A stretch of 64,000 nucleotides of DNA, from NCBI GenBank assembly GCA_963843795.1, contig CAWJLW010000006.1, positions 1,488,001-1,552,000 of the forward strand, read 5' to 3'. A program made the translations under genes and the position numbers. Position 1 is the first letter of the stretch. The number at the start of each line of letters is the position of its first letter. Origin of the DNA: an uncultured bacterium. GTDB lineage: Bacteria > Armatimonadota > Abditibacteriia > Abditibacteriales > Abditibacteriaceae. Shown piece after piece: positions 16,723 through 55,786 of this stretch. The notes below the pieces were generated by a model, which did no database searches, was not told the origin of the DNA, and was given only the letters and a program-made list of their open reading frames with translations.

Positions 16723-16768
16723 AGCAAAAACATCGCCTTGCAAGTACTTGCAAGGCGATGTTTTTGCT
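16723..16768. repeat. 46-bp perfect palindrome centred on GCAAGTACTTGC; probable bidirectional terminator
   Basis: agcaaaaacatcgccttgcaagt|acttgcaaggcgatgtttttgct. Confidence 0.85.
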
Positions 16769-16783
16769 ATACGCTCGTCTATT

Positions 16784-17578
16784 ATGCTCGCAACTCTCGA
16801 CGACAATTTAGAAATTGATTATTTTGATGAAGGCAACGGTCCGATTTTAGTTCTGCTGCACGCTTTTCCGCAGACCCACGCGATGTGGCGCGCTTTGAGC
16901 GAAAATTGGCAGCGTGATTTTCGCATTATTGCACCCAATGCACGCGGTTGTGGCCAAACGACTTACACCGAAAATTGGAGCGTTGATAGTAGCGCCGATG
17001 ATGTGGCGCGTTTGCTTCAATACTTAAAAATTGACGCGCCGATTGCTTTGTGCGGTTTGTCGATGGGTGGCTATGTCGCGCTGGCGTTCGCGCGTCGCCA
17101 TGCCGAAATGTTGGGCGCTTTGATTTTGGCCGACACGCGCGCTGAAGCTGATGACGAAGCGGGCAAACAAAAGCGCGATCAGATGATCGAATTCGCTCAG
17201 CAACACGATGCAGCGCAGATTTTCGACCAGATGGCGCCACGCTTGTTCAGCCAACACACCCTTTCGGCGCGTCCCGATATGGTGCAGTTCAGTCGCCATA
17301 TCGCAGCGACATTAGCGCCTGAAACGGTGATTGCTGCTTTGAAAGCTTTGCGTGATCGGCCTGATGCTACACTCGAATTGGTGAAAATCGCGATACCGAC
17401 TTTGGTTTTGCGCGGCGGTGCCGATGAACTGTCGCCGCCCCAGAGCGCGCAAACTTTTTTGGATAAAATTCCCCATGCGCGCCTGCAAACTCTGGAAGGC
17501 GCTGGACATTACGCTCATCTTGAGCGTGCTAGTGATTTTGAAATTGCCGTGCGCGATTTCGTGCGTAGCGCTTTGTAA
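16784..17578 (+). CDS. Alpha/beta hydrolase
   Basis: LLHAFP, GLSMGG nucleophile elbow, GGADEL, GAGH. Confidence 0.88.
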   Translation: MLATLDDNLEIDYFDEGNGPILVLLHAFPQTHAMWRALSENWQRDFRIIAPNARGCGQTTYTENWSVDSSADDVARLLQYLKIDAPIALCGLSMGGYVALAFARRHAEMLGALILADTRAEADDEAGKQKRDQMIEFAQQHDAAQIFDQMAPRLFSQHTLSARPDMVQFSRHIAATLAPETVIAALKALRDRPDATLELVKIAIPTLVLRGGADELSPPQSAQTFLDKIPHARLQTLEGAGHYAHLERASDFEIAVRDFVRSAL

Positions 17579-17663
17579 AGCTGTTGAAAGCAGCCTGCAA
17601 GTACTTGCAGCTATCCGCAAGTACTTGCAAGACAATTTTGTGGGCTTGGCTACACTGAAAGCC

Positions 17664-18506
17664 ATGAGTTCTTCGGCCAATAGTTTCTCTCTTTTTCCCC
17701 TGCGCGCTTTACAATTGAAGAAAGAGCGCGACGAGCGTATCGCCATGATTTCGCTGTATGACGCGCCAACTGCAGCTTTATGTTGCGATGTGGGCGTCGA
17801 TATTATTCTGGTTGGCGATTCGCTGGGCAATGCGGTTTTGGGCTACGACAGCACGCTGCAAGTTACGCTCGACGACATGATTCGTCATACCGCAGCCGTC
17901 GCGCGCGGTGTCGCCAAATCAACACGTCCAAACGTGCCTGTCGTCGCCGATTTGCCTTTTGCGACTTACCACGGTGCGCTGCAAACTACCATCGACAATG
18001 CCGCGGCTTTGATGCGCGCCGGTGCTCAGTCAGTGAAGCTTGAAGGCGCTTCGCCAGATATTTTGCGCGCGATTGAAACACTGGTTGCAATGGGTGCGCC
18101 AGTCGTGGGACACATCGGTTTTACGCCACAGTCGTCGCTGACTTTTGCCCGCGTTGTGCAAGGTCGCGATGAAAGTAGCGCTGACGTCCTTCAACAACAA
18201 GCGCGCGATTTGCAAAACGCTGGTTGCGCGATGATCGTTCTCGAAGCTGTGACTCGCGAAGTCGCAGCAGATATTACCAGTGAATTGAAAATTCCTACCA
18301 TTGGCATCGGCGCTGGCAGCGATTGCGATGGACAAGTTCTGGTCTGGCACGATCTGGTTGGTCTCTCGCCACAAACCCCCCGCTTCGTGCGTCAGTTCGC
18401 GAATGCACACGAAATCTTGAAAAGCGCCGCGCGTGATTACGTACAAGCCGTGCAAAGCCAAGAGTTTCCCACCGATGAACACGGCTGGAACCAAAATGGA
18501 AAATAA
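17664..18506 (+). CDS. panB: 3-methyl-2-oxobutanoate hydroxymethyltransferase
   Basis: ILVGDSLG, VADLPF, VKLEG, GHIGFTPQ, PTIGIGAG..DGQVLV.HD. Confidence 0.95.
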   Translation: MSSSANSFSLFPLRALQLKKERDERIAMISLYDAPTAALCCDVGVDIILVGDSLGNAVLGYDSTLQVTLDDMIRHTAAVARGVAKSTRPNVPVVADLPFATYHGALQTTIDNAAALMRAGAQSVKLEGASPDILRAIETLVAMGAPVVGHIGFTPQSSLTFARVVQGRDESSADVLQQQARDLQNAGCAMIVLEAVTREVAADITSELKIPTIGIGAGSDCDGQVLVWHDLVGLSPQTPRFVRQFANAHEILKSAARDYVQAVQSQEFPTDEHGWNQNGK

Positions 18507-18679
18507 ACCGCATTTGAAATACACACAAATCAAAAATTTTGCGGTCTTTGGCTGTAAATTTCACTTTTGAAATCGAGAGAATTTTTGGGGTGAATTCATG
18601 CTGGATATGTCGTTGGATTTGATGGGCGTAATAATTGCGTGGCGAGATATGCGCGTGCAAGATTTCGAGGAAATGATTC

Positions 18680-20209
18680 ATGAGTGAACAAGTAGTTGTC
18701 ATTGGCGGCGGCATCGGTGGTTTGGCGAGTGCGGCTTTGTTGGGCAAGAAGGGTTATGATGTCACTTTGGTTGAGAAGAATGGGCGTCTGGGCGGCGTGG
18801 CTAATCGCTTTGAGGCCGAAGGTTTTACATTTGATATGGGGCCATCCTGGTATCTGATGCCAGATGTGTTTCGTAATTTTTTCAGTTTGCTGAACGAGCG
18901 TGTTGAAGATCATTTGGATTTAGTGCGTCTCGACCCGAGCTACCGCATCTTTTTCTGGGGCGACCATTATTACGATTTCACTTCTGATTTAGAACGCGAT
19001 TTGCCAATTTACGAAGAGCTCGAAGTTGGTGCGGGCGCATCGCTGCGCGAGTATTTGCGCAAATCGAAGTTAAGCTATGAAATCGCGTTGGACGGTTTCA
19101 TGTATAAAAATTACGATAGTCCGCTGGATTTTCTCAACAAGCGCGCCGCGACGCAGGGCAGAGAACTGGAAGTCTTCTCCAAAATGAGCGATTATGTCGC
19201 TCGCTACTTTCATTCTGACAAAGTGCAAAAATTGATGGAGTATCAGTTGGTGTTTTTGGGTTCGTCGCCTTATAACACGCCTGCTTTATACAATATCATG
19301 ACGCACATCGATTACAGCATGGGCGTCTGGTATCCTCAAGGCGGCATCCACGAAATTCCTCTGGCTTTGCAGCGCATTGGCGAAAAATATGGTGTGAAGT
19401 ATCGAACAAATGCACCGGTCGAGCGCATTCTTACCGGACGCAAAACACAGAAATCCAGGCGCGGCGCGCGCAGTCGGGTGCGGGGCGTGCGTTTGCAAAA
19501 CGGTGAAGAGTTACCTGCAGATATCGTCCTGTCGAACGCCAGCATTCACCACACCGATTCGCGGTTGCTGCCGCCTGCGCTGCGCACTTTTTCGCCACGC
19601 TACTGGAAAACGCGCACTTTAGCGCCTTCAGCTTTGATCATTTATCTGGGTGTGCGCGGTCGCGTGCCGCAGTTGTCACATCATAATCTGTTGTTCGCGC
19701 GCGACTGGAAGCGCAATTTTGCTGAAATTTTTGACGACCCGCAATGGCCGGAAGAGCCCTCACTTTATGTGTGCGCGCCTTCAGTCACCGACCCCAGCGT
19801 CGCGCCGCCCGATCACGAGAACCTGTTCATCCTAGTGCCGATTGGCGCTGGATTAAAGTACACGCAAGCCGAACTGGAAGCGCGCGCTGATGAAGCTTTA
19901 CAAATCATCGAGCGCGAAATGAAGATTCCCGATTTGCGTGAGCGTATCGTGTATCAGCGTTTGTGGAGCGTAAAGGATTTTCAAAGCCAATACAATACGC
20001 AAAACGGGACGGCTCTGGGCTTGGCTCACACGATGCGCCAAACGGCTTTGTTACGTCCCAATAATCGCTCGAAAAAAGTTGAGAACTTGTTTTACGCTGG
20101 CGCTAACACCAATCCTGGTATTGGAATGCCGATCCAACTGATTTCCGCTGAATTAGCTTATAAACGTATCACTGGCGACCGCTCGGCCCAACATCTCGAA
20201 CAATTGTGA
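18680..20209 (+). CDS. crtI: Phytoene desaturase family protein
   Basis: VIGGGIGGL, GFTFDMGPSWYLMP, ALGLAHT..Q, RP.N, GANTNPGIGMP. Confidence 0.88.
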   Translation: MSEQVVVIGGGIGGLASAALLGKKGYDVTLVEKNGRLGGVANRFEAEGFTFDMGPSWYLMPDVFRNFFSLLNERVEDHLDLVRLDPSYRIFFWGDHYYDFTSDLERDLPIYEELEVGAGASLREYLRKSKLSYEIALDGFMYKNYDSPLDFLNKRAATQGRELEVFSKMSDYVARYFHSDKVQKLMEYQLVFLGSSPYNTPALYNIMTHIDYSMGVWYPQGGIHEIPLALQRIGEKYGVKYRTNAPVERILTGRKTQKSRRGARSRVRGVRLQNGEELPADIVLSNASIHHTDSRLLPPALRTFSPRYWKTRTLAPSALIIYLGVRGRVPQLSHHNLLFARDWKRNFAEIFDDPQWPEEPSLYVCAPSVTDPSVAPPDHENLFILVPIGAGLKYTQAELEARADEALQIIEREMKIPDLRERIVYQRLWSVKDFQSQYNTQNGTALGLAHTMRQTALLRPNNRSKKVENLFYAGANTNPGIGMPIQLISAELAYKRITGDRSAQHLEQL

Positions 20210-20423
20210 AAGGCGCGGCTTTCCTTAACTTAAGGATAATATTTTAAAATGCACACAAAACTAAAGTTTAGGAAGCAGAGAGTAACATGGCCTAGCAGTT
20301 CGCTGTGCTTGTGGGCCAGTTGGATGCTGCAAGTACTTGCAGCGTGTTTGGTGCGGTAAAATTGAGTGAGCAAATGCTTGCTGGCAACTGGGAAATAAAG
20401 GGTGCAATGGGGACAATGGATTG

Positions 20424-23306: not shown

Positions 23307-23386
23307 ATCAGACATTTTTTAAATGCACACAAAACTCAATTTGAGTTCTTTAGGCACAGCTGACGCGCTTAACTTAAAATGCATTA

Positions 23387-23438
23387 AGAATGCTTAAACG
23401 CGTGCCGCAAGTACTTGCGGCACGCGTTTAAGCATTCT
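23387..23438. repeat. 52-bp perfect palindrome centred on GCAAGTACTTGC, overlapping the 3' end of the methyltransferase gene
   Basis: agaatgcttaaacgcgtgccgcaagt|acttgcggcacgcgtttaagcattct. Confidence 0.9.
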
Positions 23439-24225
23439 GCACCATGAAATACCAGCGTTCCGAGCGCGCGTGAGGACGGTTGAGCGTGTAGGCATCGTAG
23501 GCTCCAAGTGGCTTCCATCCGGACGTTTGCACTATTTCCAGCACTTCTTCCAATAAATAAGCGCGTTCGCGATGAGTTTCGAGGAAAGTTTCGGTTTTTC
23601 CATCGCCGTTGCGCTTTTCGAATTTCATATCGACACGACAAATGCGCTCCTGCCTATCAAAATTGGCATTCCATTGATATTGTAATGGCTTTCGTGGGTC
23701 GCGTTGTGTTTGGGTGAAAAGATTGGCGCGAAAAGCCCAATCGGAATTCATATCGAACACCCAGATTCCACCCGGTCGCAGACACGCTCTTATTCTTGCA
23801 AATGCCAGTGCCAGGTCGTGCGGGTCGAGAATGTAGTTCAGCGAATCGTACAGGCAAGTTGCGCCATCAAATAAGCGCTCTGTGCGCAATTGTGTGAGAT
23901 CGCCCACGCGAAATTCTGCCGAGCCATCGGCTTGTTCAAGTTCGATTTGTAATTTCGGATTAGAAATTTTAGCCTGGGCAATAGCGATCATCTCGGGGCT
24001 GAGATCGACCCCTTCTACTTGATAACCACGACGCGCCAGTTCAAACGAAACGTTACCGGTTCCACAGGCGGCATCGAGCACGGTACGCGGCACGAAATCG
24101 TGTAGCGACCACAAAAGTTGCACATATTCAACCCACTGCGCATAGGGCACAACTTTCATCAGTTCATCGTAATAAGGAGCTAAAGGGCCAAATTGCCCGG
24201 CATCATCGTGGTTTTTGGGTTCCAT
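23428..24225 (-). CDS. Class I SAM-dependent methyltransferase
   Basis: VLDAACGTG, GVDLSPEM, CLYDSLNY, LRPGG..FD. Confidence 0.9.
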   Translation of the reverse strand: MEPKNHDDAGQFGPLAPYYDELMKVVPYAQWVEYVQLLWSLHDFVPRTVLDAACGTGNVSFELARRGYQVEGVDLSPEMIAIAQAKISNPKLQIELEQADGSAEFRVGDLTQLRTERLFDGATCLYDSLNYILDPHDLALAFARIRACLRPGGIWVFDMNSDWAFRANLFTQTQRDPRKPLQYQWNANFDRQERICRVDMKFEKRNGDGKTETFLETHRERAYLLEEVLEIVQTSGWKPLGAYDAYTLNRPHARSERWYFMVQNA

Positions 24226-24348
24226 GCTAAAAAGTGCTCAATGCGAGTTTGCGTGCTGTGCCAAGTTGCAAAATATTGTTGTCAAGGCAATATTATCAGG
24301 TTTATCAGACGCCAGAAGGTGAAGTGCGCGGTTATACTGTGGGCTATT

Positions 24349-25218: not shown

Positions 25219-25341
25219 AAATGAGAAAAGGCGCGAGAGAAATATAAAAGTATTGGAACGAGCTGAGAAGCTCATGCAAGTACTTGCTGTATGTTAAAGC
25301 CTGGTTTCTTTTCACAAGCTACCCTTTCTCACTGACTCACT

Positions 25342-27495: not shown

Positions 27496-27500
27496 AATAA

Positions 27501-27546
27501 TGGTCCGTTTGTTTTGGTGCAAGCTTGCACCAAAACAAACGGACCA
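27501..27546. terminator. 46-bp perfect palindrome after metG centred on GCAAGCTTGC (core lacking the central TA)
   Basis: tggtccgtttgttttggtgcaag|cttgcaccaaaacaaacggacca. Confidence 0.8.
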
Positions 27547-31670: not shown

Positions 31671-31678
31671 AGAAGTTG

Positions 31679-32636: not shown

Positions 32637-32858
32637 AGTCAAATCTTCGCAGCGCCCCTTGTATCACTGCAAGTACTTGCATCTGGCCTCTTAACGAAAT
32701 ACACGGGCGATAAAAAACGCAAGCCACTTACTTGTTACCCGCCTTTCCCGATTCCAATATCCATGACATCAAAATGACTATATCAACAAAATTTCGTTTT
32801 GTGTGTATTTAAAATGATATTTGTCTATTAAAAATCGTGGCCGTTGCTCCTTGTGCAA

Positions 32859-33469: not shown

Positions 33470-33507
33470 CAAAAACGCTCCTGCAACTACTTGCAGGAGC
33501 GTTTTTG
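33470..33507 (-). terminator. tmRNA terminator hairpin centred on variant core GCAACTACTTGC
   Basis: caaaaacgctcctgcaact|acttgcaggagcgtttttg, 3 nt past the tmRNA 3' end. Confidence 0.8.
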
Positions 33508-33510
33508 AAA

Positions 33511-33867
33511 TGGAGGCGGCGAGAATTGAACTCGCGTCCGCAAAGTGAACTACAGTGGCGTCTACAGGCATAGTCGCGCTTTAATTTAAACGTACAGCAT
33601 CCGCGCGACTTGGAAACTGTGCATCGAGTTCACGTTTATGCCAGCCACATGGTTTGGAGCGAACAATCCGTTCATGTGACATCCGTCTAAATGATGCGAA
33701 GAGGAACCGACGGACAAATCATCTCAACGCAAGGCTGCGCTTAGGCAGCCAGAGCCAGCTGAGGCTGGGTGTTATTGGCAGTTAAAGTTATTTCCCCGTT
33801 TAACGAGTCTGAGAAACTCGGCCCGCAACCACGGCTTTCAGGCTCCACGTCGAAACCTGTCGCCCCC
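33511..33867 (-). ncRNA. ssrA: tmRNA; tag peptide ANNTQPQLALAA* (33779-33741)
   Basis: 5' GGGGGCG..GGTTTCGAC pairs with 3' CGCCTCCA (G3.U wobble); T-arm GCGAGTTCAATTCTCGC; internal ORF ends ALAA; CCA tail not encoded. Confidence 0.96.
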
Positions 33868-37102: not shown

Positions 37103-38011
37103 TTAAATGCGGCGCAGCGAAGTGGCAGCGATGCGACCGTTGCGAACGACGCCCTCAACGCGCACATTTTGACCGACGCGGAAATCTTCACTGCTGCGAT
37201 AATACACCGTGTAGCTGCGACCATTTTCGGCGTTTACCAGCAAGGTATCGCTGCGAGTATCGATGCGAGCGATGCGGGCGTTGAAACTGACCGTGCGACC
37301 TTCAGCGTAATCACCGCTGTCGTTGTTGTTGCGAACCAGGATTACGCGCGCATTAGTGATGCGATCGTTACGCAAATCGCCGCTTACGCGAACGCGGTCT
37401 CCACGGTCGATATTGCGCAAATCGCTGTTGGTATCAACGACGTAAGTGCGACCATTAGACGCGCGAACGCGCAAGCGAGTCGCGCTATCGACGTTGACCA
37501 CGACGCCTTCCGAATTGATACGGCGGTCATCGTTGTTGCCACCGCGATTATCCAGAATGCGTACGGTGTCGGCAATAAAAATCCCGTTGCGATTGACTCC
37601 AGTCACCCGAACGCGGTCACCACGACTCAAACGATTCGGTTCCGCACCCTCAACGCGCACCGTCACCGAACGCCCATTATCAGTGCGCAACTCGAATGAG
37701 CGGCCTGCATAATCACGCGTCACCACACCTTCCAAAGTGCGCTCGTTGCGATAATCGCCGCGGTCACGGTCATCGCGGTCACGGTCATCACGGTCATGAT
37801 CGTCGCCATCACGGTCATCGCGGTCACGGTCATCGCGGCCATATTTGTCCTTCTTGTCTTTTTTATCCTTTTTATCCTTATCGCGGTATCCATAGGCCGG
37901 AGCGTGCTTGGGTGGCTTGGCCTGTGCGTTCACAAGAGGAAAACCCATCACGCCAACGGTGGTCACAACAGTGGCAATGCGATTTAAATTCCAACGATAT
38001 GTCGTTTTCAT
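37103..38011 (-). CDS. Secreted protein with charged DDRDR tract and three ~65-aa OB-fold-like (DUF5666-like) repeats
   Basis: Signal peptide ending AQA; repeats xGVV..NGR(S/T)Y.V...GDRVRV.G...NG.I.A. Confidence 0.75.
   Translation of the reverse strand: MKTTYRWNLNRIATVVTTVGVMGFPLVNAQAKPPKHAPAYGYRDKDKKDKKDKKDKYGRDDRDRDDRDGDDHDRDDRDRDDRDRGDYRNERTLEGVVTRDYAGRSFELRTDNGRSVTVRVEGAEPNRLSRGDRVRVTGVNRNGIFIADTVRILDNRGGNNDDRRINSEGVVVNVDSATRLRVRASNGRTYVVDTNSDLRNIDRGDRVRVSGDLRNDRITNARVILVRNNNDSGDYAEGRTVSFNARIARIDTRSDTLLVNAENGRSYTVYYRSSEDFRVGQNVRVEGVVRNGRIAATSLRRI
37760..37838. repeat. Imperfect 15-bp tandem repeat encoding DDRDR
   Basis: gcggtcacggtcatc-like units. Confidence 0.75.
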
Positions 38012-38103: not shown

Positions 38104-38139
38104 AAAATAGCCGCTGCAAGTATTTGCAGCGGCTATTTT
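38104..38139. terminator. Hairpin after murQ centred on GCAAGTATTTGC
   Basis: aaaatagccgctgcaagt|atttgcagcggctatttt. Confidence 0.75.
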
Positions 38140-39002: not shown

Positions 39003-39048
39003 AATCAGCAAAGCGCTCTGCAAGTACTTGCAGAGCGCTTTGCTGATT
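39003..39048. repeat. 46-bp perfect palindrome between argS and murQ centred on GCAAGTACTTGC
   Basis: aatcagcaaagcgctctgcaagt|acttgcagagcgctttgctgatt. Confidence 0.88.
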
Positions 39049-39052
39049 CAAA

Positions 39053-40807
39053 TTACATCTGTTCAATTGTTTCAATGCCCAGCAGGTTCAAACCTTGTTT
39101 GAGCACGCGCGCGGTTTGCGCGCACAGCATCAAGCGCGTGGTTTTGTGCGGTTCGGGCGCGTCTAAAACGCGACAGTTTTCGATGAAGGCAGAGAATTCC
39201 TGCGCTAAAGCAAATAGATAATCGGAAATCGCGTTGGGCCGATAATCTTGCAGCGCGGTTTCGACGGCTTCGTGGAAGCGCAGCAAGTACTTGCACAACG
39301 CCAATTCGTTGGCGTGTTCGAGCTGGCAAGTACTTGCATCAGCCAACCGCGCGACTTCGGCATCGCTGAGGCCAGCGCGCCGAAAAATTGAGCGCACGCG
39401 CACATACGCGAACAGCAAATACGGCGCGCTGTTGCCTTGCATCGCCAGCAATTTGTCCCACGAAAACGTGTAATCGCTGCTGCGATTTTGCGACAAATCG
39501 GCGTATTTCAGCGCACCAATTCCGACCACACGCGCGACTTCATTTTGCTGTTCTGCACTCAAATCAGGATTCTTCTCGCGCACGATTTCTAATGCGCGCC
39601 GTTGCGCTTCATCCAACAGCGCATCCAAGCGCGGCGGTTCGCCGTCGCGGGTTTTGATCGGCGTGCCGTCTTCGCCCAGAATTTTGCCGAATTCGACGTG
39701 CTCCAGCTTCACTTCATCGCGTCCCCACAAACGGACTGCGGCGAACAACTGCCGAAAATGCAAGCTCTGGCGCGCATCGACAACATAAATAATCTCGTCC
39801 GGTTGCCAGGTTTCCAAACGATAATCAATCGTCGCCAAATCGGTCGTCGCGTATAAAAACGAGCCGTCCGATTTGCGAATCAACATCGCGCGGTCTTGCA
39901 AACCGGCTTCGTCAAACGCAATCACAATCGCGCTTTCGCTGGTTTTGGCGATGCCGCGTTTGGTCAAACCATTGACCAAAGCGGCCAAGCGCTCGTGATA
40001 AAAACTTTCGCCGAGCGTCACATCAACGTGAATATCCAAACGCTCGTACATCGCTTCCAATTGAGGTTCGGACGCTGCGCGCAATTCTTTCCAAATCGCG
40101 AGATTTTCCTCATCACCTTCGTGCAAAGCCGCGATTTCCTGACGCGCGCGTTCCAAAATCTGCGGATTTTCTTTGCCCTGCGCATCGACGTTTTTATACA
40201 AACGTCCCATTTCTTCCAGCGGCGATTTTTCAAAATTGTCGCGGTCGAGTTCGGTTTTCCAGCCCACGATGACTTTGCCAATCGGCGTGCCCCAATCGCC
40301 GACGTGATTGTCCGCGATGACTTTGTGCCCCGCGAAACGCAAAATGCGCGCGATGGCGTCGCCGATAAACATGGTGCGGATGTGGCCGACGTGCAGCGGC
40401 TTGGCGACATTCGGCGAAGGGTAATCAATTACAACCGTGCGCGTTTCTGCGCTTTGGGGCACGCCGCAACGCGCATCGGACAACAATTCGCGCAAGGCGT
40501 TTTCGAGAAAATCGTGTTCTAAGCGAAAATTGACGAAGCCCGGCCCGGCGATTTCGGGCGTTTGGCTGATGCCGCTCACATCAAGATGATTGATTAAGGT
40601 TTGGGCCAAAGCGCGCGGATTGGTTTTCCACTGCTTGGCCAACCCCAACGCGCCGTTCCACTGATAATCGCCGAATTGCGCGTTGGCGGTCGGCACGACG
40701 CGCGACAACGCGGGCGTCAAAAGCGCGCTATCGGCCTTGAGTTCATCAGCGGTTTTTTCCAATGCTTGCGCGACGCGGTTTTGAAGTTGTTGAGAAACTG
40801 TTTGCAT
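39053..40807 (-). CDS. argS: Arginine--tRNA ligase
   Basis: FGDYQ, IAGPGFVN, SPNVAKPLHVGH, KSDG..YATTD, GNSAPYL, C-terminal EQM. Confidence 0.96.
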   Translation of the reverse strand: MQTVSQQLQNRVAQALEKTADELKADSALLTPALSRVVPTANAQFGDYQWNGALGLAKQWKTNPRALAQTLINHLDVSGISQTPEIAGPGFVNFRLEHDFLENALRELLSDARCGVPQSAETRTVVIDYPSPNVAKPLHVGHIRTMFIGDAIARILRFAGHKVIADNHVGDWGTPIGKVIVGWKTELDRDNFEKSPLEEMGRLYKNVDAQGKENPQILERARQEIAALHEGDEENLAIWKELRAASEPQLEAMYERLDIHVDVTLGESFYHERLAALVNGLTKRGIAKTSESAIVIAFDEAGLQDRAMLIRKSDGSFLYATTDLATIDYRLETWQPDEIIYVVDARQSLHFRQLFAAVRLWGRDEVKLEHVEFGKILGEDGTPIKTRDGEPPRLDALLDEAQRRALEIVREKNPDLSAEQQNEVARVVGIGALKYADLSQNRSSDYTFSWDKLLAMQGNSAPYLLFAYVRVRSIFRRAGLSDAEVARLADASTCQLEHANELALCKYLLRFHEAVETALQDYRPNAISDYLFALAQEFSAFIENCRVLDAPEPHKTTRLMLCAQTARVLKQGLNLLGIETIEQM

Positions 40808-40858
40808 AAATGGAGATGATGAAACGTGCTGCAAGTACTTGCAGCACGTTTTTGATTT

Positions 40859-42271: not shown

Positions 42272-42425
42272 GAATTATCTCCTCTTGAAAAGCGCTCACA
42301 GTGTAACGACTTTCCAGAAAGAGAAAAGAAAAATGCGAAAGAAGCAAAAAAATCGCGCTGCAAGTACTTGCAGCGCGACCGCCGGAGTGCGACGTCACCT
42401 TTTGACCTTTGCACTTTTCTCTTCC

Positions 42426-44546: not shown

Positions 44547-44553
44547 ATTTCGA

Positions 44554-45414: not shown

Positions 45415-45481
45415 TTCGGGCGCAACATTGGTTGCAAGTACTTGCAACGGCTGCGCAGCTTTTAGGGGAATACTTAAAGCC

Positions 45482-47623
45482 ATGAAAACCAGAGAGAAAT
45501 GCTTAATTTTGCTTTGCAGTTTGACTGGTGCGTTGCTCGGCGGCGCAGCCCACGCTCAAGACATGATGCTTTTCAATTTCGATACGCCAGAACAAATTGC
45601 GGCCTTTGAAGCCAATGGCACGCAGCTTTCGCAGTTTGTGAACCCCAACATCAAAGCGTTAAAGATCGAATTTTTGGCCGATAAAGAATGGCCCAACGCT
45701 TATTACGGCGCGCCCGAACCGATGAATTGGAATCAACGCGCCCTCGCCTTCGATGTTTTTAATCCGGAAACTGTGCCTGTCGCGTTTTCCGTCCGCGTCG
45801 ATGACGATCCAAGCGCCGATGGCAACGTGCACTGCCGGACGGGAAACGGTTCGATTGCTTCCAATGCGCGCCGCACATTCGTGATGCAATTCGGCCCTGA
45901 TGCGATGAGTCTGGGCATGCGTGGTTTGCCTACATCGGTGAACGCTCAATTCAGCGGTTTGAACGCGGGCGGACAGGGCGAATTTCATCCAGAGCATATC
46001 GTCGGCTGGCAAATTTTTCTCCACGCGCCCAAAACCACGCAAACGCTTATCGTCGATAATGTGCGACTTTTGCCTTTGGCGACTTCCAATCTGAAAAATA
46101 TCGTCAATCGTTTTGGTCAATACGCGCCCACGAACTGGCCCGGCAAACTGACTTCCGAAGCCGAATTGCAAACGCGCCGCAGGGCCGAAGAAACGCGCTT
46201 GAATGGGCCAACGCAACTGCCCAATCGCGACCGTTTCGGCGGCTGGACGAACGGACCGCAATTGAAAGCGACCGGCTGGTTTCGCACCGAAAAAGTCGAT
46301 GGCAAATGGTGGCTGGTCGATCCCGAAGGCCGCGTGTTTTTTTCCAACGGCGTCGATACTATGAATCTGGGCAATGGCACGATGATAACCGGGCGCGAAC
46401 AAATGTTCGCTGATTTGCCCGCTGCCAACGACCCGCTGCACAAGTTTTTCAGCCAGACCGATGGCATTCTGTATGGCCCGACCAAAAGTGGCCAGCAATT
46501 CGATTTCTATGGAGCCAATTTGCAGCGCAAATACGGCGCGGATTATCCAGCGCAATGGACGCGCACCGCTCTACAACGCTTGCGCGCGTGGGGATTTAAT
46601 ACCGTCGGCAACTGGTCGGACGAAACGCTGAAAAGCGAAAGTTCTAAGATCGATGCCGGAAATTTGCGCATTCCTTATGTCGCGACCGCGAGCATTGATG
46701 GCAATCATGCGCGCGTGGCGAGCGGCGACGATTACTGGGGCAAAATGCACGACCCGTTCGATCCACAATTCGCAGTTGATGCCGCCAATTCGTTGAAGTG
46801 GGCGACCCAGCAATCACGCAACGATCCTTTTTGCATCGGCTATTTCGTCGATAACGAACTGTCGTGGGGCGGCGGCGATTCGCCACAAGGACGTTACGCG
46901 CTGGCTTTAGGCGCCCTCAAACTGCCGATGAGTTCACCCTCTAAAGCCGCATTTGTCGCGCAACTCAAACGCGATTATTCAAGCGTTGCCGCTCTTAACA
47001 CTTCGTGGAACGTAAAATTAAAATCGCTGCAAGAATTGGAAACTCCGTTTAAAACCGAAACGATTAACGAAGCAATGCAGAAAGATTTACAAAAATTTTC
47101 GCGTGCGTTTGCTTTGAAATATTTCACCGTAGTGCGCGACGCCTTACACAAATTGGATGCGAACCATTTGTATCTCGGCTGCCGTTTCGCGTGGCGCTCG
47201 CCCGAAGCTGTCGAAGCCGCCGCGCAAGTGTGCGATGTCGTCAGCTTCAATGTATATAAACGCACGCTGGACAAAACCGAATGGTCTTTCGCCAACGCTG
47301 TGAGCAAACCCTGCATCATCGGCGAATTTCATTTCGGCGCTTTAGATCGCGGAATGTTCCACACCGGCTTGGTGCCGACCGAAAACCAGAACGACCGCGC
47401 GCGAGCTTACATCGATTACGTGCAAAGCGTCGCCGACCATCCCGCTTTCGTTGGCTGTCATTGGTTCCAGTACATCGACGAACCGCTGACGGGCCGCGTG
47501 TGGGACGGCGAAAATTACAACATCGGCATGGTCGATGTTACCGACACGCCGTATCCCGAATTGACCGTTGCCGCGCGCCAAGTTCACGCGACGGTTTACC
47601 AGCGTCACGCGGCGGCGAAATAA
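45482..47623 (+). CDS. Secreted GH50 (beta-agarase-like) glycoside hydrolase
   Basis: Signal peptide ending AHA; ATGWFRTEK..WWLVDPEG, WGFNTVGNWS, GYFVDNELSW, IIGEFHFGA.DRG, GCHWFQY.D, DGENYNIG. Confidence 0.85.
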   Translation: MKTREKCLILLCSLTGALLGGAAHAQDMMLFNFDTPEQIAAFEANGTQLSQFVNPNIKALKIEFLADKEWPNAYYGAPEPMNWNQRALAFDVFNPETVPVAFSVRVDDDPSADGNVHCRTGNGSIASNARRTFVMQFGPDAMSLGMRGLPTSVNAQFSGLNAGGQGEFHPEHIVGWQIFLHAPKTTQTLIVDNVRLLPLATSNLKNIVNRFGQYAPTNWPGKLTSEAELQTRRRAEETRLNGPTQLPNRDRFGGWTNGPQLKATGWFRTEKVDGKWWLVDPEGRVFFSNGVDTMNLGNGTMITGREQMFADLPAANDPLHKFFSQTDGILYGPTKSGQQFDFYGANLQRKYGADYPAQWTRTALQRLRAWGFNTVGNWSDETLKSESSKIDAGNLRIPYVATASIDGNHARVASGDDYWGKMHDPFDPQFAVDAANSLKWATQQSRNDPFCIGYFVDNELSWGGGDSPQGRYALALGALKLPMSSPSKAAFVAQLKRDYSSVAALNTSWNVKLKSLQELETPFKTETINEAMQKDLQKFSRAFALKYFTVVRDALHKLDANHLYLGCRFAWRSPEAVEAAAQVCDVVSFNVYKRTLDKTEWSFANAVSKPCIIGEFHFGALDRGMFHTGLVPTENQNDRARAYIDYVQSVADHPAFVGCHWFQYIDEPLTGRVWDGENYNIGMVDVTDTPYPELTVAARQVHATVYQRHAAAK

Positions 47624-47844
47624 TGCGCAAGTACTTGCACCGCTGCTTGCAAGTACTTGTGCATTATTTGAGAATTTTCTCACAGAGTTCTCAAACATCT
47701 CTTGTACAGCGCCCACATACTATTCTGCAATGGTCGGTGTGAGAATGTAGCGTATAAAAACAGGACACGAAATTTGAATTCCTGGCGCGCATTTCACATT
47801 TGAATCAACCACAATTGTGTTGGTATTTTGCAGGTAGGTGAATC

Positions 47845-48498: not shown

Positions 48499-48514
48499 AT
48501 ACAACCTTTCCACA

Positions 48515-50434
48515 ATGACAACGATACCGAGCGCCCTCGCTCCCCGGCCATTGCACCACCAAAGCACTGAAACCGTTCCACAACCAACTCCTTGGCAGCG
48601 CGATTTGCTGTGGATTTTTTTGTTGGCGTTGCCATTATTCTTCTGGGGAGTTGGCGCGTGGGGGTTTTTCGATCCCGACGAAGGACGCTACGCAGAAATT
48701 CCTCGCGAAATGCTCGTGCGACACGATTTCATCACACCGACACTCAATTTCCTCAAATACTTTGAAAAACCGCCGCTGCTGTACTGGAGCGTCGCTGCTT
48801 TCTATAAAATCTTTGGCTTCCACGAATGGGCCGCACGCTTAGTCTCGGCGCTCGCGGCGCTGCTGGGAGTGTTCACCGCCTACGCTCTGGGCCGCCGTAT
48901 GTTCGGACGGCGCGCCGGTTTGCTGAGCGCGATTATTCTGGCGACGTCGGTTTTTTGGGCCTTCATGGCGCGCTTCATTATTATCGATACGCTGCTTTCG
49001 GCGATGATTTTTCTGTCACTGGCTCTGTGGTGGCTCGGACACACGCAAGACACCGCTGGCAATGGACATGATGCTCATGAAGATAACTCGCGCACGCAAC
49101 TTTATTTTCTGGGGTTTTGGGTGGCATTAGCACTGGGCGTGTTGTCCAAGGGGCCGGTTGTCGTCGTTTTAATCGGCGGCACAATTTTCCTTTATACGGC
49201 GATTTGCCAACAGTGGCGGGCGTGGACGAGAATGCAATGGATTTTGGGCGTGCCGTTGTTTCTGCTGGTGACGGCACCGTGGTTCGTTTTGGTGGCGCAG
49301 CGCAATCCCGAATTCAATCATTTCTTCTGGTATGACCAACACATCGGACGTTTCCTGGGCAGAGGCAAAGTCGAGCATCAGCAGCGGGTGTATTGGTTTT
49401 TGGAATTCCTGCCGCTGCTGTTTTTCCCGTGGTCATTTTTTGTGCCCGCTGCTTTAATCGAAGGTTGGCGCAAATTAAGGCGCGCGCCCCGTAACGCCGA
49501 ACTTTATACGCCACGCCAACGCGCCGTGATTTTCCTGCTGTGCGGTGCCGGTTTTATCACTGCTTTCTTTTCATTGTCCAGTTCGAAATTATTGACTTAT
49601 GTTTTGCCGGTTTTGCCTCTGCTTGCTGTCTTGATGGCGGCTTATTTCAACTTTCTGCTCGAACGCATAGAACGAAATGAAATGCATTCGTGGCATCGTG
49701 CACTCAGCGGTGGCGCGCTAGCATTAACGCTGGTTTTAGTACTGACAGTTATTGGCGGCGCCACAGTCGGCGTGAAAAAGCTGTATTCTATCGAGGCCTT
49801 GTCCGCGCTTTATGTGGTGCCTGTATGCATCGCGTGCGCGCTTTGGGCATCGAGTCTGATGTGGGCGACGCGGCGGCGGCGGTTGGGCTGGCTGATAGTG
49901 GCGATTTCGGGCGGTTTTTCGGCGTTTTTACTGGGCGCGTTGTTCATCGTGCAAGCCGCCGCGCCCAATCATTTGCCGCAAGCCTTAATTGCTTACATTC
50001 AGCCCGGTTTGCGAGCCGGTGGCAAAGTTGCCACTTGGAATAGCTACACGCAAAGCGTCGGCTTTTATTCGGGGCAACGGTTGCGCACTTTCGTCAATCA
50101 CGAAGATACCGATGCCGGTGAACTGGTGGAAATTCCGCTCAGCCAGCAGAATATGAGCGAAGCAGAACAGAAGTTTTGGTTTCCGGTTGGCATTGAAGAT
50201 TTGCGACAGTTTTTGGCGCAGGACAAACCGGCCTACTGCTTGATGAAAGATCATCAAATGGCGCAGCAAGTACTTGCACAGCTCAATGATAACTCGCAGG
50301 AAATCATTTGGAACAAGCGGCGCGCTCTGATCGGTAATCGCGCTGCCGTTGCTCTCACGCCGCCCAAGCCCGGCGGTTTGCTGGGCGTCGAGACCGCAGA
50401 TATTAAAAACAGCGTTCTCGAGCGCTCTAATTAA
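48515..50434 (+). CDS. arnT: ArnT-like GT-C lipid-carrier-dependent glycosyltransferase
   Basis: DPDEGRYAEIPREM, YFEKPPLLYW, LSKGP, SKLLTY; adjacent to arnBCAD. Confidence 0.88.
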   Translation: MTTIPSALAPRPLHHQSTETVPQPTPWQRDLLWIFLLALPLFFWGVGAWGFFDPDEGRYAEIPREMLVRHDFITPTLNFLKYFEKPPLLYWSVAAFYKIFGFHEWAARLVSALAALLGVFTAYALGRRMFGRRAGLLSAIILATSVFWAFMARFIIIDTLLSAMIFLSLALWWLGHTQDTAGNGHDAHEDNSRTQLYFLGFWVALALGVLSKGPVVVVLIGGTIFLYTAICQQWRAWTRMQWILGVPLFLLVTAPWFVLVAQRNPEFNHFFWYDQHIGRFLGRGKVEHQQRVYWFLEFLPLLFFPWSFFVPAALIEGWRKLRRAPRNAELYTPRQRAVIFLLCGAGFITAFFSLSSSKLLTYVLPVLPLLAVLMAAYFNFLLERIERNEMHSWHRALSGGALALTLVLVLTVIGGATVGVKKLYSIEALSALYVVPVCIACALWASSLMWATRRRRLGWLIVAISGGFSAFLLGALFIVQAAAPNHLPQALIAYIQPGLRAGGKVATWNSYTQSVGFYSGQRLRTFVNHEDTDAGELVEIPLSQQNMSEAEQKFWFPVGIEDLRQFLAQDKPAYCLMKDHQMAQQVLAQLNDNSQEIIWNKRRALIGNRAAVALTPPKPGGLLGVETADIKNSVLERSN

Positions 50435-50495
50435 GGCGTTGGCAAACCAAGAGGCGGCAAGTCGATAACACTCTGGCGCGCTCCAAGGATCATTG

Positions 50496-51668: not shown

Positions 51669-52729
51669 AAGCGATGTCGCCCATCGAAACGGTTTCGGTC
51701 GTAATTCCGGTTTACAACGAAGAAGGCAACTTGCCCGAACTCTTGCGCCGCACTCTGGAATCGTGCCGCGCCATGCAGCGCCCGTTCGAACTGATTCTGA
51801 TTGATGATGGTAGCCGCGATAGCTCGGTGAATCTCATGGAAGCTGCGGCAGCGCAAAATGCGGAAGTGGTGTGCGTGCTGCTCAATCGCAATTATGGTCA
51901 ACATGCGGCAATCATGGCCGGTTTCGCGCAGGCGCGTGGCGATCTGGTAATTACGCTCGATGCCGATTTACAAAACCCGCCGGAAGAAATTCCCCGTTTG
52001 GTCGAAAAAGCCGGCGAAGGATTCGATGTCGTGGGCACAGTGCGACTCAACCGCGCCGACAGCGGTTTTCGCAAATTCGCCAGTTCTCTGGTCAACAAAG
52101 TGACGGCTAAAGCCACTGGTGTGATGATGCACGATTACGGTTGTATGCTGCGCGCTTATCGTCGTCACGTCGTCCAAGCGATGCTGCAATGCCACGAGCG
52201 CAGCACTTTCATTCCCGCGCTGGCCAATTCGTTCGCGCGCCACGCAACCGAAATCGAGGTTTCGCACGCCGCGCGCGCGACCGGCGAATCGAAATACAGC
52301 GTGTGGAAGCTAATCAATTTGCAGTTCGATTTGCTCACTGGCATCAGCACGTTTCCATTGCGTTTGCTGAGCTTGATCGGTACTTTCGTTTCAGTCTTAG
52401 GTATTGGCTTTGGTGTTTTGCTTTTGGCGTTGCGTATATTTTTTGGTCGCATATGGGCAGCCGAAGGCGTTTTCACTTTGTTCGCCATCTTGTTTATTTT
52501 CGTCGGTTTGCAGTTCATCGGCATGGGACTTCTGGGCGAATACATCGGGCGCATTTATCAGGATGTGCGCGCTCGTCCGCGCTTTTTTGTGCAAGAAGTG
52601 AGCGGAACTGGGTTGCGGAAAATGGACGCGAACACCAATGATTTGGACAGCGCACCGATGCCGATTGGCGCGGGCACGCCACATTTGCGCGAAACGGAAG
52701 CCGTGCAAGTACTTGCAGCGCGTTCATAA
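51665..52729 (+). CDS. arnC: Undecaprenyl-phosphate Ara4FN transferase
   Basis: [62 protein letters not shown]. Confidence 0.93.
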
Positions 52730-52840
52730 GCAGAAGTTCATTTAAAAGCAGAAACTGATTGAATCTTCGTGCTTTGAACGTGGTGCAAGTACTTGCAGCG
52801 CAACAGTATCAACATCCATCCCTCAAGGATTAAAATTTCT

Positions 52841-54841
52841 ATGAAAGCAGTTGTCCTGGCATATCACAATGTTGGTTGCGTTGGTCTCGAAGCTTTGCTG
52901 CGTCACGGCGTCGAAGTCGTGGCCGTATTCACACACCGCGACGATCCACACGAAAACGTCTGGTTCGATTCGGTGGCGGCTCTGGCCGCCGCGCACAACA
53001 TTCCGGTTTACGCGCCCGACGACATCAATCATCCAATTTGGACGCGGCGCATTGCGGAAATGCAGCCGGATATTTTGTTTTCGTTTTATTATCGCAACCT
53101 GATTCGCCCCACTCTACTCGATATTCCGCCGCAAGGCTGTCTCAATTTGCATGGTTCGCTGCTGCCCAAATATCGCGGGCGCGTGCCGGTTAACTGGGCT
53201 TTGATTCACGGAGAAACGGAAACCGGAGTTACGCTGCACTACATGACGCCGCGCCCCGACGATGGCGACATCGTCGCCCAACAAAGCATGCCAATTACGC
53301 CCAACGACACCGCGCGCACGCTTTTCGACAAAATCGTCGGCGCATCCACGCAACTTTTGGACGGTATTCTGCCCGCCATCATCGCTGGCAACGCGCCGCG
53401 CACGCCACAAAACGCTGCCGAAGCGACTTATTTCGGCGGGCGCAAAGCCGATGACGGCGAAATTGACTGGACACAAAGCGCCACGCAAATCCGCAACTTA
53501 ATTCGCGCCGTTTCGCAGCCTTATCCGGGCGCATTCACGCAACATCTCGACGATAAACTCATCGTGTGGCAAGCGACGGTCGCGGAAGCGAAAAAGGCCG
53601 AGGCGGGCACAATTCTTTCGCTCGAACCGCTGCTTATCGCGTGTGGCGAAGGCGCTTTGCGCATCGATTTCGCGCAGGCCGAGAACGGCATTTACACTAC
53701 GGGCGCGCAGGCCGCCGCAGAATTGCGTTTGGTGGCTGGCACGAAATTGGGCGTTCGCCCGCCGCAGCGAGTGAAGAAAAAAACCAGCATTTTGATTCTG
53801 GGCGCCAACGGTTTCATTGGCAACGCGCTCAGCGAGCGTTTACTGGCCGACGGCAATTATGAAATTCACGGTCTAGATTTGCACTGCGACAAAATCGAGC
53901 GTTTGCTGGGCCGTCCCAATTTTCATTTCGAAGAAGGCGATATTTCAATTCATCGCGAATGGATCGAATATCATGTGCGCAAATGCGATGTCGTAATTCC
54001 TCTGGTGGCCATCGCCACGCCGATTGAATATGTGCGCAACCCGCTGCGCGTTTTCAACCTGGATTTCGAGGAAAACCTGCGCGTGGTGCGCTACTGCGCC
54101 AAGTATCGCAAGCGCGTCGTTTTCCCTTCAACTTCCGAAGTTTATGGAATGTGCGACGAGGACGAATTTGATGAAGACAATTCACAATTGGTGCTGGGAC
54201 CAATTCGGATGCAGCGCTGGATCTATTCCTGCTCCAAGCAATTGTTGGATCGCGTGATCTGGGCTTACGGTCAGCAAGAAGGTTTGCAGTTCACGCTTTT
54301 CCGACCGTTCAACTGGATCGGCCCGCGTCTGGACACTTTGCAATCGGCACGCATCGGAAGCTCGCGCGCGATTACGCAACTGATTTTGAATCTGGTCGAA
54401 GGTAGCCCCATTTCTCTCGTCGATGGCGGCCTGCAAAAGCGCTGTTTCACTGCCACAGATGACGCCATCGAGTGTTTGTTCCGCATCATTGAAAACCCGG
54501 ACGGCGTTTGCGATGGCCAGATTTTCAACATCGGCAATCCCGACAACGAAGCCAGCATCAAAGAACTCGCGCAAATGGTCGTCGATGAATTTGAAACGCA
54601 CCCGCTGCGTTCGCATTTTCCGGCTTTCGCCGGTTTTCAGGAAGTCGAAAGCGCCAATTATTATGGCAGCGGCGGCTATCAGGACGTGGAACATCGTCGT
54701 CCCAGCATTCACAAAGCTGATAAATTGCTCGGCTGGACGCCCACAATCGGGATGCAGGAAGCGGTTGCGATCACGGTCGATTTCTTCTTGCGCGAAGCCA
54801 TTGAAAGCGGCGATTTCGCGCTTAATTCCGTCGAGGTTTAA
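52841..54841 (+). CDS. arnA: Bifunctional UDP-GlcA decarboxylase / UDP-Ara4N formyltransferase
   Basis: [51 protein letters not shown]. Confidence 0.95.
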
Positions 54842-54847
54842 ATCATT

Positions 54848-55750
54848 TTGGGCATAAATTCCCGCCAAATTGGCTTGCGCATCGATGTCGATACTTTGCG
54901 CGGCACGCAGCGCGGTGTACCCGCGCTGTGCCGCATTCTGGCGCAGCGACAAATCAAGGGCACGTTCTTTTTCTCGGTCGGCCCCGACAATATGGGCCGC
55001 CATTTGTGGCGCTTATTGAAGCCGCAATTTCTGCTCAAGATGCTGCGTTCCAACGCCCCTTCGCTCTATGGCTGGGACATCATTTTGCGCGGCACGCTGT
55101 GGCCCGGCCCACTTATTGGCGCGGCCAATGTCACGGCGATTCGAGCCGTCGCCCAGGGCGGCCACGAAATCGGCATTCACGCTTGGGATCATTACGCCTG
55201 GCAAACCCACGTCGAACGTGCTGGTTTGGCGGGCGTGCGCGAATGGATGCAGCGCGCCGCGCAAGTTCTCACCGACATCACCGGACGCGCGCCGACGTGC
55301 GCTGCCACGCCGGGCTGGCGTTGTACAGATGAAGTTTTGATTAATCGCGAAGAATTTGACTTCGCTTTCAACAGCGATTGTCGCGGCCAAAGCGTATTTC
55401 GCCCGCAGGTCAAGGGGCAAGCTCTTTCGCAACCACAAGTTCCCAGCACATTGCCAACGTATGACGAACTCATTGGTCAAGATGGCATCACCAACGAAAA
55501 CTACAATCGCCATTTGATGAGTTTATTGCGCCCGAATCAATTGAACGTTTTGACAATTCACGCCGAAGCCGAAGGCATCGTGTGCGCCGATTTGTTCGCG
55601 CAATTTTTAGATGAAGTGCTATCGCAAGGCTGGCAGGTTGTGCCGTTGGGCAGAATTGTGCAGCAGGCCCAGTCGCAGACATTGCCGCAATGCGAGGTTT
55701 TGAAGCAAGTGATTGCGGGCCGCGAAGGTTGGGTAGCGGCGCAAAGCTAA
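54848..55750 (+). CDS. arnD: Ara4FN deformylase (TTG start uncertain)
   Basis: GLRIDVDT.RGT, FFFSVGPDNMGRHLWRL, HAWDH, TIHAEAEG. Confidence 0.93.
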   Translation: MGINSRQIGLRIDVDTLRGTQRGVPALCRILAQRQIKGTFFFSVGPDNMGRHLWRLLKPQFLLKMLRSNAPSLYGWDIILRGTLWPGPLIGAANVTAIRAVAQGGHEIGIHAWDHYAWQTHVERAGLAGVREWMQRAAQVLTDITGRAPTCAATPGWRCTDEVLINREEFDFAFNSDCRGQSVFRPQVKGQALSQPQVPSTLPTYDELIGQDGITNENYNRHLMSLLRPNQLNVLTIHAEAEGIVCADLFAQFLDEVLSQGWQVVPLGRIVQQAQSQTLPQCEVLKQVIAGREGWVAAQS

Positions 55751-55786
55751 AAATATGTTGCAAGTATTTGCAACATATTTTTAGCT
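55745..55786. terminator. 42-bp palindrome (one mismatch) spanning the convergent stops of arnD and the feo cluster
   Basis: agctaaaaatatgttgcaagt|atttgcaacatatttttagct. Confidence 0.8.

Follow-up and report, generated by a model that had tools for sequence, protein, structure and literature searches.

An iterated GTAC-centred palindrome and its long terminator-like arms in an Abditibacteriaceae genome

Palindromes in the window and across the genome

The stretch analysed here (the window) comprises 64,000 nucleotides of a 3.62-Mb contig (C6) in the 4.30-Mb genome of an uncultured Abditibacteriaceae bacterium (G000), and carries many palindromes built around one 12-mer, GCAAGTACTTGC, which we call the core. 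Forty exact copies lie between positions 361 and 61512, 14 in called genes and 26 between them (genes were called with our own script, which gave 3,410 genes and 85.6% coding sequence for the genome and missed some genes). A first-pass annotation made from the letters of this DNA had reported five perfect palindromes, and we recovered each at the same position and length: 52 bp at 23387–23438 in a convergent gap, 46 bp at 16723–16768 in a tandem gap, 46 bp at 39003–39048 directly 3′ of the minus-strand argS gene and terminator-like on that strand, 38 bp at 3262–3299 in the murA/mreB interval, and 30 bp at 40822–40851 in the glmM/argS interval. Four near-perfect palindromes were likewise confirmed, each with one substitution inside the core: 1909–1942, 3′ of mqnC; 33470–33507, adjoining the 3′ end of a minus-strand tmRNA (33508–33867, tag ANNTQPQLALAA; an Rfam search returned the tmRNA only); 38104–38139, 3′ of murQ (minus strand); and 55745–55786, at the 3′ end of arnD. 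The description of all of them as core-centred holds for most, except that the centre of 3262–3299 falls between two overlapping cores (3270–3281 and 3280–3291), and the list had overlooked a 46-bp perfect palindrome 3′ of metG (27501–27546), whose centre is the core without its central TA. Shorter core-centred palindromes occur at 11152–11177 (26 bp, in the atp operon, with a second core at 11190–11201), 15164–15189 (26 bp), 42353–42378 (26 bp, terminator-like on the minus strand), 3324–3347 (24 bp) and 58298–58319 (22 bp). Two short-armed cores within argS (39283–39294 and 39326–39337, together spanning 39283–39337) are absent from its orthologues and arose by substitution.

Three of these structures reach into a gene and mirror its stop codon, as first described. 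The 52-bp palindrome takes in the final 11 nt, including TAA, of a minus-strand gene for a SAM-dependent methyltransferase (23428–24225, Pfam Methyltransf_25), which is distinct from the orphan DNA methyltransferase discussed below. At 55745 the left arm holds the last 6 nt (AGC TAA) of plus-strand arnD (54875–55750; NCBIfam 380 bits against a cut-off of 382), and the right arm mirrors them. The element at 47618–47669 also mirrors 6 nt across the stop of a plus-strand open reading frame of 686 amino acids (45563–47623), but it is a hairpin of two cores, one of them imperfect, with an 8-nt loop, and not a single-core palindrome. That reading frame had been labelled GH50, for which we found no support, since it has no Pfam or NCBIfam match.

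Across the genome the core is the most frequent 12-mer, with 2,567 exact copies and 506 one-mismatch variants. A list of all perfect inverted repeats of at least 24 bp, proposed as a check in the first-pass annotation, contains 620 palindromes, of which 565 (91%) are centred on GCAAGTACTTGC; their lengths peak at 32–36 bp and reach 78 bp. Perfect extension by at least 6 bp on each side is found at 565 of the 2,567 cores, compared with 21.5 when arms are shuffled between loci, and extension by at least 10 bp at 437 compared with 3.3. Samples of relatives that lack the motif held only 4 perfect palindromes of at least 24 bp in 749 kb, as against 144 loopless palindromes per Mb in G000, a density that is high because the core supplies the palindrome centre. 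A scan of genome contigs with a 22-nt pattern gave at least one isolated match, and six viral contigs each carry a single core.

Placement and flanks of the core

Cores lie mainly, though not exclusively, between genes. Of the 2,567 copies, genes contain 765 and tandem gaps 1,244; convergent and divergent gaps contain 291 and 261, and the remaining 6 are at contig edges, so that 1,802 are non-coding (70% intergenic, 30% in genes). This amounts to a 14-fold enrichment between genes, and cores cluster 5–15 nt downstream of stop codons. Coding sequence was aligned with 360 kb of a congener, G001 (143 aligned pieces, 48,104 codons, 66% identity). Aligned coding sequence held 46 AAGTACTT sites in G000 and 85 in G001, with 8 shared; 105 of 119 scored sites had no gap nearby, and amino acids were often changed. 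Against other relatives, 46 of 54 sites were without a nearby gap, with 0 AAGTACTT in the relatives compared with 55 in G000. Because orthologous sites mostly lack a nearby gap, the core arose by substitution, even within proteins. The encoded peptides are enriched to match: QVLA occurs 580 times compared with 43 for its permutations and ASTC 132 times compared with 3.8, and 515 of 577 QVLA peptides are written with the core (0.4% expected).

Cores are also spread more regularly than chance predicts. Counts are even along contig C6, and a replichore bias was rejected on that ground; two 26-kb core-free gaps are insertion-sequence and restriction islands, judged by eye from their transposases and restriction genes. 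Between 0.6 and 3.6 Mb of C6 the coefficient of variation of spacing is 0.675, compared with 0.757 ± 0.014 when coding cores are re-placed at random, and gaps longer than 4 kb number 63 compared with 104. With growing distance from the nearest intergenic core the density of coding cores climbs from 15 per 100 kb to 45 (control peptides, 20–27), and gene ends beside core-less gaps carry 25 compared with 13 per 100 kb (68 and 73 sites, p = 2e-4). This filling of gaps indicates a need, or a drive, for a site about every 1–2 kb.

A preferred context surrounds cores of every class, consisting of 6 GC-rich base pairs followed by A/T peaks about 9, 19–20, 29–30 and 40 bp out. The flanks are symmetric with respect to transcription and are present in divergent gaps and, under a peptide control, at third codon positions; in the QVLA frame the third codon position 9 bp upstream is A at a frequency of 0.40, compared with 0.16 in 688 control peptides. 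With this peptide-matched control, the codon periodicity of amphipathic helices is rejected as an origin of the flank phasing. Flank periodicity is strongest at 10–11 bp in G000 and G001 and at 9.5–10.5 bp in G009; of four unrelated palindromes used as controls, one (AAGCGCTT) peaks as well, at 10.5–11.5 bp, with a much flatter profile. Neighbouring cores are phased with one another at 10.3–10.5 bp (n = 134, Rayleigh p about 1e-9), although the shared flank preference alone would give such phasing.

Arms and terminators

Long arms are concentrated where terminators would be expected. Convergent gaps have them in 193 of 387 cases, tandem gaps in 331 of 2,001 and divergent gaps in 25 of 439, and among coding cores they are present at 14 of 765. 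Their median distance past the stop in tandem gaps is 28 bp. RNA folds of six examples gave long hairpins with z-scores of −6 to −10. The palindromes had been called loopless, which is true of the DNA only, because in the RNA the folded core-centred examples have a loop of 4 nt, which is GUAC where the core is exact. Long-armed copies thus have the anatomy of intrinsic terminators, with a GC-rich stem, a short loop and a U-tract shortly past the stop. The long palindromes are therefore likely to act as intrinsic terminators: their distribution over gap types fits the use first proposed for them, and termination itself we infer from position and fold. In a core-independent search, core-like hairpins made up 421 of the 553 terminator-like hairpins found (about three quarters), leaving 132 that are core-less.

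How did the arms become so long and so perfect? At the 222 long sites where the A/T tracts are fully paired, perfect matching continues for at least 1 bp further at 169 and for at least 5 bp at 63. Beyond the tract the match is continued at about 0.6–0.9 per base, compared with about 0.25 by chance, and after the first mismatch it drops to that background, giving a sharp edge. Sequence past the U-tract is absent from the terminated RNA, so RNA pairing cannot select this extension. At tandem sites, pairing over 10 bp is perfect in 232 stems, and 25 have one mismatch (12 G·U, 11 C·A and 2 other). Core variants comprise 71 G·U and 59 A–C on the transcript, without a clear G·U preference, and at the terminal pair of the core alone 25 G·U compared with 12 of the A–C mirror. 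Mirrored double mutants of the core occur at 3 long-armed sites compared with 0.32 expected, although the numbers are small. Template switching has been proposed to both make and keep perfect inverted repeats in bacteria (PMC5941160), and its marks are present here: arms that are perfect beyond function, a sharp edge and mirrored mutations. The same likeness extends to quasi-palindrome template switching as described elsewhere, with sharp-edged perfect arms, mirrored mutations and extension beyond RNA function (PMC5941160, PMC7202029, PMC8794818); what differs is the high density of loopless products.

The first-pass proposal of locally copied arms thus gains support from matches that continue past the A/T tract, from the sharp edge and from symmetric double mutants of the core. 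Its statement that the arms are unrelated to one another applies to the outer arms, which are unique in 34 of 34 cases, but not to the inner arms, which share a loose consensus (A-tract, GCGCG, CT). The first arm 8-mers take 305 different forms among 565 sites, the commonest occurring 56 times, and one 34-mer is present in 14 identical copies. Mirroring of stop codons is uncommon: 48 gene ends genome-wide overlap a long arm, 24 by at least 3 nt and 9 by at least 6 nt. Extension per base is 0.69 with one coding arm and 0.76 with neither coding, and this similarity indicates that stop mirroring is copying that happens to reach a gene end. The arms are likely to be terminators perfected by ordinary template switching, a mechanism that is itself nothing new; this reading is firmer than any on the core itself and is common to the uptake, chromosome-protein and methylation-ratchet accounts below. 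Among the pieces listed from the short contigs of run X1, none bridged a long palindrome with both flanks so as to display concerted change of the arms, and no close strain was found among 80 metagenome loci (best, 60% identity).

By contrast with local copying, priming at the core, for example after a nick, did not survive comparison with terminators that lack it. Extension past the tract averages 3.4 bp at core-like hairpins (n = 260) and 2.7 bp at core-less ones (n = 65; Mann–Whitney p = 0.14), and extension by at least 5 bp is found at 75 of 260 and 17 of 65, so that core-less arms reach about equally far, the outcome that the first-pass annotation had itself named first as counting against its proposal. 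Samples of motif-free relatives, about 670 kb in all, yielded 17 terminator-like hairpins; arms there reach 29 bp, of which 14 lie past the tract. Core-primed arm growth was rejected because core-less hairpins, and some in motif-free relatives, extend about equally. Tolerance of long palindromes through loss of SbcCD was rejected as well: SbcD passes its cut-off and an intact SbcC-like gene of 1,057 amino acids follows it. SbcCD acts mainly on much longer palindromes. The operon concerned (G000:C6:2199186–2206812) resembles nurA-herA-sbcD-sbcC, with SbcD assigned by NCBIfam and the others by eye from motifs. A search for Y1/HUH nucleases in the genome gave one match, a gene of 140 amino acids (within G000:C6:750558–753788) resembling the transposases associated with repetitive extragenic palindromes (REPs), known as RAYTs. 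Six GTAG-type REP hairpins flank it and 25 copies occur genome-wide; these repeats are unrelated to the core, and RAYT was rejected as its cause. No telomere resolvase was found in five of five motif-bearing genomes.

Relatives, candidate machinery and interpretation

Related genomes write the motif in distinct dialects. We compared 27 Abditibacteriaceae genomes and 301 genomes of the phylum; the closest named homologues of MreB are 79–84% identical and labelled Abditibacteriota/Abditibacteriaceae. Seven of the 27 family genomes (G000, G001, G006, G009, G012, G015 and G019) bear the motif, in five sequence types that all contain AGTAC. The 12-mer of G000 has 0–3 copies in each of 40 relatives and none in G001, which instead carries 2,725 AAGTACTT, most commonly in the 12-mer form CAAAGTACTTTG, and palindromes of its own of 26–60 bp. 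TCGAGTACTCGA occurs 2,770 times in G009, 2,510 in G015, 2,261 in G019 and not at all in G000; G012 has the looser YGAGTACTCR; and G006 has 2,412 copies of AGTACGGTCGA, mostly as a 24-bp inverted pair. Among 97 sampled G006 half-sites, 69 have a partner matching at 10 or more of 11 positions and 15 have at most 5 partner matches; an apparent strand skew of the half-site arose from the listing alone, the sampled region having 8 in forward and 9 in reverse orientation. More than 2,800 copies of AGTACT are present in 6 of the 301 genomes of the phylum, each of them in Abditibacteriaceae, and the others have at most 1,197. Genera g2 and g5 deplete it, with 1–126 copies compared with 305–1,419 for the reversed control, and a regulon of the few AAGTACTT sites left in depleted genera was rejected, as 20 sites had no shared context. 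We found no description of this motif in the literature that we could reach, which included few subscription papers.

A MetG tree of 27 rows (G001, G025 and G026 gave no hit, and G014 was dropped for internal stops) places G006, G012, G015, G009 and G019 in one clade (99/98) and G000 apart with weak support (81/70). With this weak placement of G000 the tree is compatible with one origin followed by losses and with two origins. The only GCAAGTACTTGC in motif-free G003 lies in a 40-bp perfect, terminator-like palindrome (positions 13616–13655 of locus L121, on G003:C26), possibly acquired from a G000-like donor. An 8-kb patch of G012 (positions 8527–16289 of locus L146, on G012:C48) holds 11 AAGTACTT sites, most of the G001 type and not of the host genome's own dialect, and similar clusters occur in G017, G024:C98, G020:C179 and G016:C2. 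Such clusters are probably DNA moved from motif-bearing relatives, or else binning contamination.

A candidate for part of the machinery is an orphan β-class adenine methyltransferase, the single N6/N4 methyltransferase match in G000, with no nuclease evident by eye among its neighbours. Strong orthologues are present in 21 of the 27 family genomes (7 of 7 motif-bearing and 14 of 20 motif-free), and none as strong was found in 274 other genomes of the phylum. GTAC is observed at 0.00–0.51 of expectation in six sample groups with the gene and at 0.80, 0.96 and 0.81 in three groups without it, G002 (without the gene, 0.27) being an exception; one group is only 15 kb, the groups are kin and not independent, and CTAG in part follows the gene as well. 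AGTACT is depleted in families f11 and f34 though they are without this methyltransferase. The enzyme may target GTAC, judging from these sequence counts, but this is a lead only because of G002, CTAG, the small group, kinship and families f11 and f34. Its homologues are 33–36% identical proteins of plasmid records and its best PDB match is M.RsrI, from which the target cannot be read. In G009 the gene lies 3 kb from mutL on the same strand (within G009:C1:2992039–2997547), an arrangement absent from G000 and G006. GTAC and CTAG are nearly absent from samples of G005, G014 and G007 (0 each in about 70 kb of G005), and AGTACT is nearly absent from families f11 and f34.

Other candidates were less informative. 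ComEC (5 of 5 genomes), ComEA (25 of 27) and DprA, PilT and MutL (5 of 5 each) do not distinguish genomes with the motif from those without it, and ComEC, ComEA, DprA and PilT are all present in G000. SeqA was found in none of five genomes, MutH gave one weak match among five, in a motif-free genome, and none in the three motif-bearing genomes tested, and C5 methyltransferases were found in neither G000 nor G001; all three were rejected as causes, being not found in the motif-bearing genomes tested. A search among small, basic, highly expressed proteins gave 55 candidates, many of them, by eye, ribosomal or with signal-peptide-like N termini, and identified no reader of the core.

The closest parallels are the DNA uptake sequences of Neisseriaceae (DUS), the uptake signal sequences of Pasteurellaceae (USS) and, among the highly iterated palindromes of cyanobacteria, HIP1 (GCGATCGC) and its alternates. 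DUS and USS spread by mutation and recombination, are more evenly placed than random, enrich peptides and are not palindromic (PMC2817400); USS have helically phased T-tracts and are co-opted as terminators (PMC3458573), and DUS form dialects around a core (PMC3630211). Our core resembles them in its density of about 0.6 copies per kb (0.8–0.9 for USS and DUS), its hundreds to thousands of copies with few one-off variants, its origin by substitution with enrichment of encoded peptides, its evenness and scarcity in recently acquired DNA, its lineage dialects around a fixed centre, and, as for USS, phased tracts and co-option as terminators. It differs in being a perfect palindrome of unrelated sequence in the phylum Armatimonadota, in forming the terminator centre as a single copy where DUS and USS form the stem as an inverted pair, and in having tracts phased on both sides and 70% of copies intergenic. 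HIP1, also a palindrome, is associated with orphan methyltransferases (PMC4390886); a link to chromosome architecture has been proposed for it (PMC5861425), and in its methylated form it increases transformation (10.1101/2024.09.10.611283; PMC13756078). Like HIP1, the core is an iterated palindrome in coding and non-coding DNA with non-random spacing, and has a short internal palindrome that is a candidate orphan methyltransferase target; unlike the 8-bp, cyanobacterial HIP1 it measures 10–24 bp around a different centre, and it has dialects between congeners, extended phased flanks, a place at the centre of terminator hairpins and depletion in sister genera.

The leading explanation, about as probable as not, is that GCAAGTACTTGC is a lineage-specific DNA signal favoured in uptake or recombination, with its long arms serving as terminators. 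Under this proposal, a protein would bind the duplex at the core and bend about 30–40 bp on each side, and biased uptake with homologous recombination would fix new sites where none is near. Cores just past stop codons would be co-opted as terminators because their preferred flanks, GC-rich and then an A/T tract, already resemble a two-way terminator. The self-complementary core could seed hairpins at the replication fork, where one arm would be copied onto the other, sometimes including a stop codon, and methylation of the central GTAC by the family-wide orphan adenine methyltransferase may be a part. More tentatively, and with the balance tipping slightly against it, a further kind of DNA self-recognition tag, independent of DUS/USS and HIP1 and the third after them, may be present in Abditibacteriaceae: a methylated GTAC-centred palindrome with a DNA-wrapping receptor and genus or species dialects of 10–24 bp. 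Such a tag would have altered the sequences of hundreds of proteins and captured most terminators, multiplying in some genera and being purged from their sisters.

Several observations weigh against a signal for uptake or recombination. No receptor for the core was found, motif-free relatives have the competence genes to the same extent, and the orphan methyltransferase also occurs in 14 of 20 motif-free family genomes. Known DUS and USS are not palindromic (PMC2817400) but the core is, and even G006 halves are mostly paired (69 of 97), which would suit a dimer that binds within the cell; the intergenic share, 70% of copies, exceeds that of USS. With 65 hairpins, the core-less comparison group is small. 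A role in chromosome structure would account equally well for the even spacing and the phasing. It is on the unlikely side, though still a serious alternative, that an abundant dimeric chromosome protein, serving nucleoid organisation, replication or repair, binds at the core and wraps DNA, needing a site every 1–2 kb, and that direct selection maintains the sites. Strict dyad symmetry, phased flanks over 3–4 helical turns, neighbour phasing at 10.3–10.5 bp (n = 134), gap filling and the architecture proposed for HIP1 (PMC5861425) would all be explained, but thousands of sites changed sequence between congeners (0 copies of the G000 12-mer in G001), coding sites coincide at only 8 of 46, the motif is absent from 20 of 27 family genomes, SeqA is missing from five of five genomes and MutH from the three motif-bearing ones tested, and the phasing follows from the flanks.

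Improbable, in our estimate, is accumulation through a ratchet of methylation-directed repair or mutation at methylated GTAC, as in Elhai's model for HIP (PMC4390886), which would leave the core no role of its own beyond later terminator use. It does not predict gap filling, phased flanks or dialects of 12–24 bp, most carriers of the methyltransferase deplete GTAC, G002 reaches 0.27 without the gene and CTAG partly tracks it; the presence of the family-confined enzyme in 7 of 7 motif-bearing genomes and the GTAC ratios of 0.00–0.51 against 0.80–0.96 speak in its favour. We consider very improbable the nicking origin raised in the first-pass annotation, in which a nuclease nicks the core and fold-back synthesis, or else transposase insertion, generates the palindromes in the manner of REPs or miniature inverted-repeat transposable elements, even though 91% of long perfect palindromes are core-centred, arms are sharp-edged and a 34-mer recurs in 14 identical copies. 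Extension is about equal without the core, coding cores are substitutions, long arms are rare in divergent gaps and genes although these have many cores, the RAYT-like gene has its own GTAG repeats (25) and no telomere resolvase was found. REPs and bacterial interspersed mosaic elements are hundreds of extragenic palindromes near gene ends, with family-conserved arms, a GTAG foot and RAYT transposases. Here the reverse holds, with a constant core, varying arms and no GTAG foot, and 30% of cores lie in genes, by substitution and not insertion. The chance is slim that the core acts in RNA, as a hairpin (GCAA-GUAC-UUGC) recognised by a nuclease or an RNA-binding protein: the 14-fold enrichment between genes, the stop-proximal cluster and the 25 to 12 excess of terminal G·U pairs would suit it, but flanks are symmetric regardless of transcription and phased at 10.4 bp, variants overall stand at 71 to 59, and conservation of the central GTAC, the loop of such a hairpin, equals that of the stem. 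Assembly fold-back, finally, is almost certainly not the source of the palindromes, which lie among intact genes with unique flanks in a 3.6-Mb contig and share their design with the separately assembled G001, G006, G009 and G012.

Sequence-biased uptake is known in two proteobacterial families and suspected for HIP1, and this family combines traits of both: a palindrome with an orphan methyltransferase, like HIP1, and dialects, phased T-tracts and terminator use, like DUS/USS. Seven genomes with thousands of sites and 20 with almost none offer a natural contrast for profiling gene content, about 560 long-arm loci give sites at which template switching can be measured, and the dialects mark horizontally moved DNA within the family.

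Further repeats were noted beside the core. An array of four perfect palindromes (28–58 bp) centred on GTATATATAC, with different arms, lies upstream of serine recombinase-like and ParA-like genes, assigned by eye (G000:C4:10127–10330), possibly as recombination or partition sites of a mobile element, and a parS-like palindrome, TGTTTCACGTGAAACA, has perfectly mirrored extended arms (G000:C6:3512716–3512751) and a similar counterpart in G004. Non-palindromic 11-mers with AGCCACG, which may be a Chi-like word, are scattered widely through samples of the motif-free genomes G007 and G005; 66 kb of G007 contain 16. Within the window, a second repeated intergenic motif with CACACAAAA, unrelated to the core, lies just past gene ends at 2076–2105, 18512–18541, 20242–20271, 23316–23345, 14996–15031 and 32778–32813. 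Positions 52841–55750 encode arnA and arnD for modification of lipid A with 4-amino-4-deoxy-L-arabinose, with a PMT-family glycosyltransferase gene upstream at 48605–50434. Tandem repeats of 15, 15 and 9 bp occur in or beside called genes at 37736–37855, 62204–62263 and 63416–63480, and the segments 61766–62468 and 63222–63742 recur about 2.2 kb downstream at 96–99.8% identity, a recent tandem duplication at an FG-GAP/ASPIC-UnbV gene.

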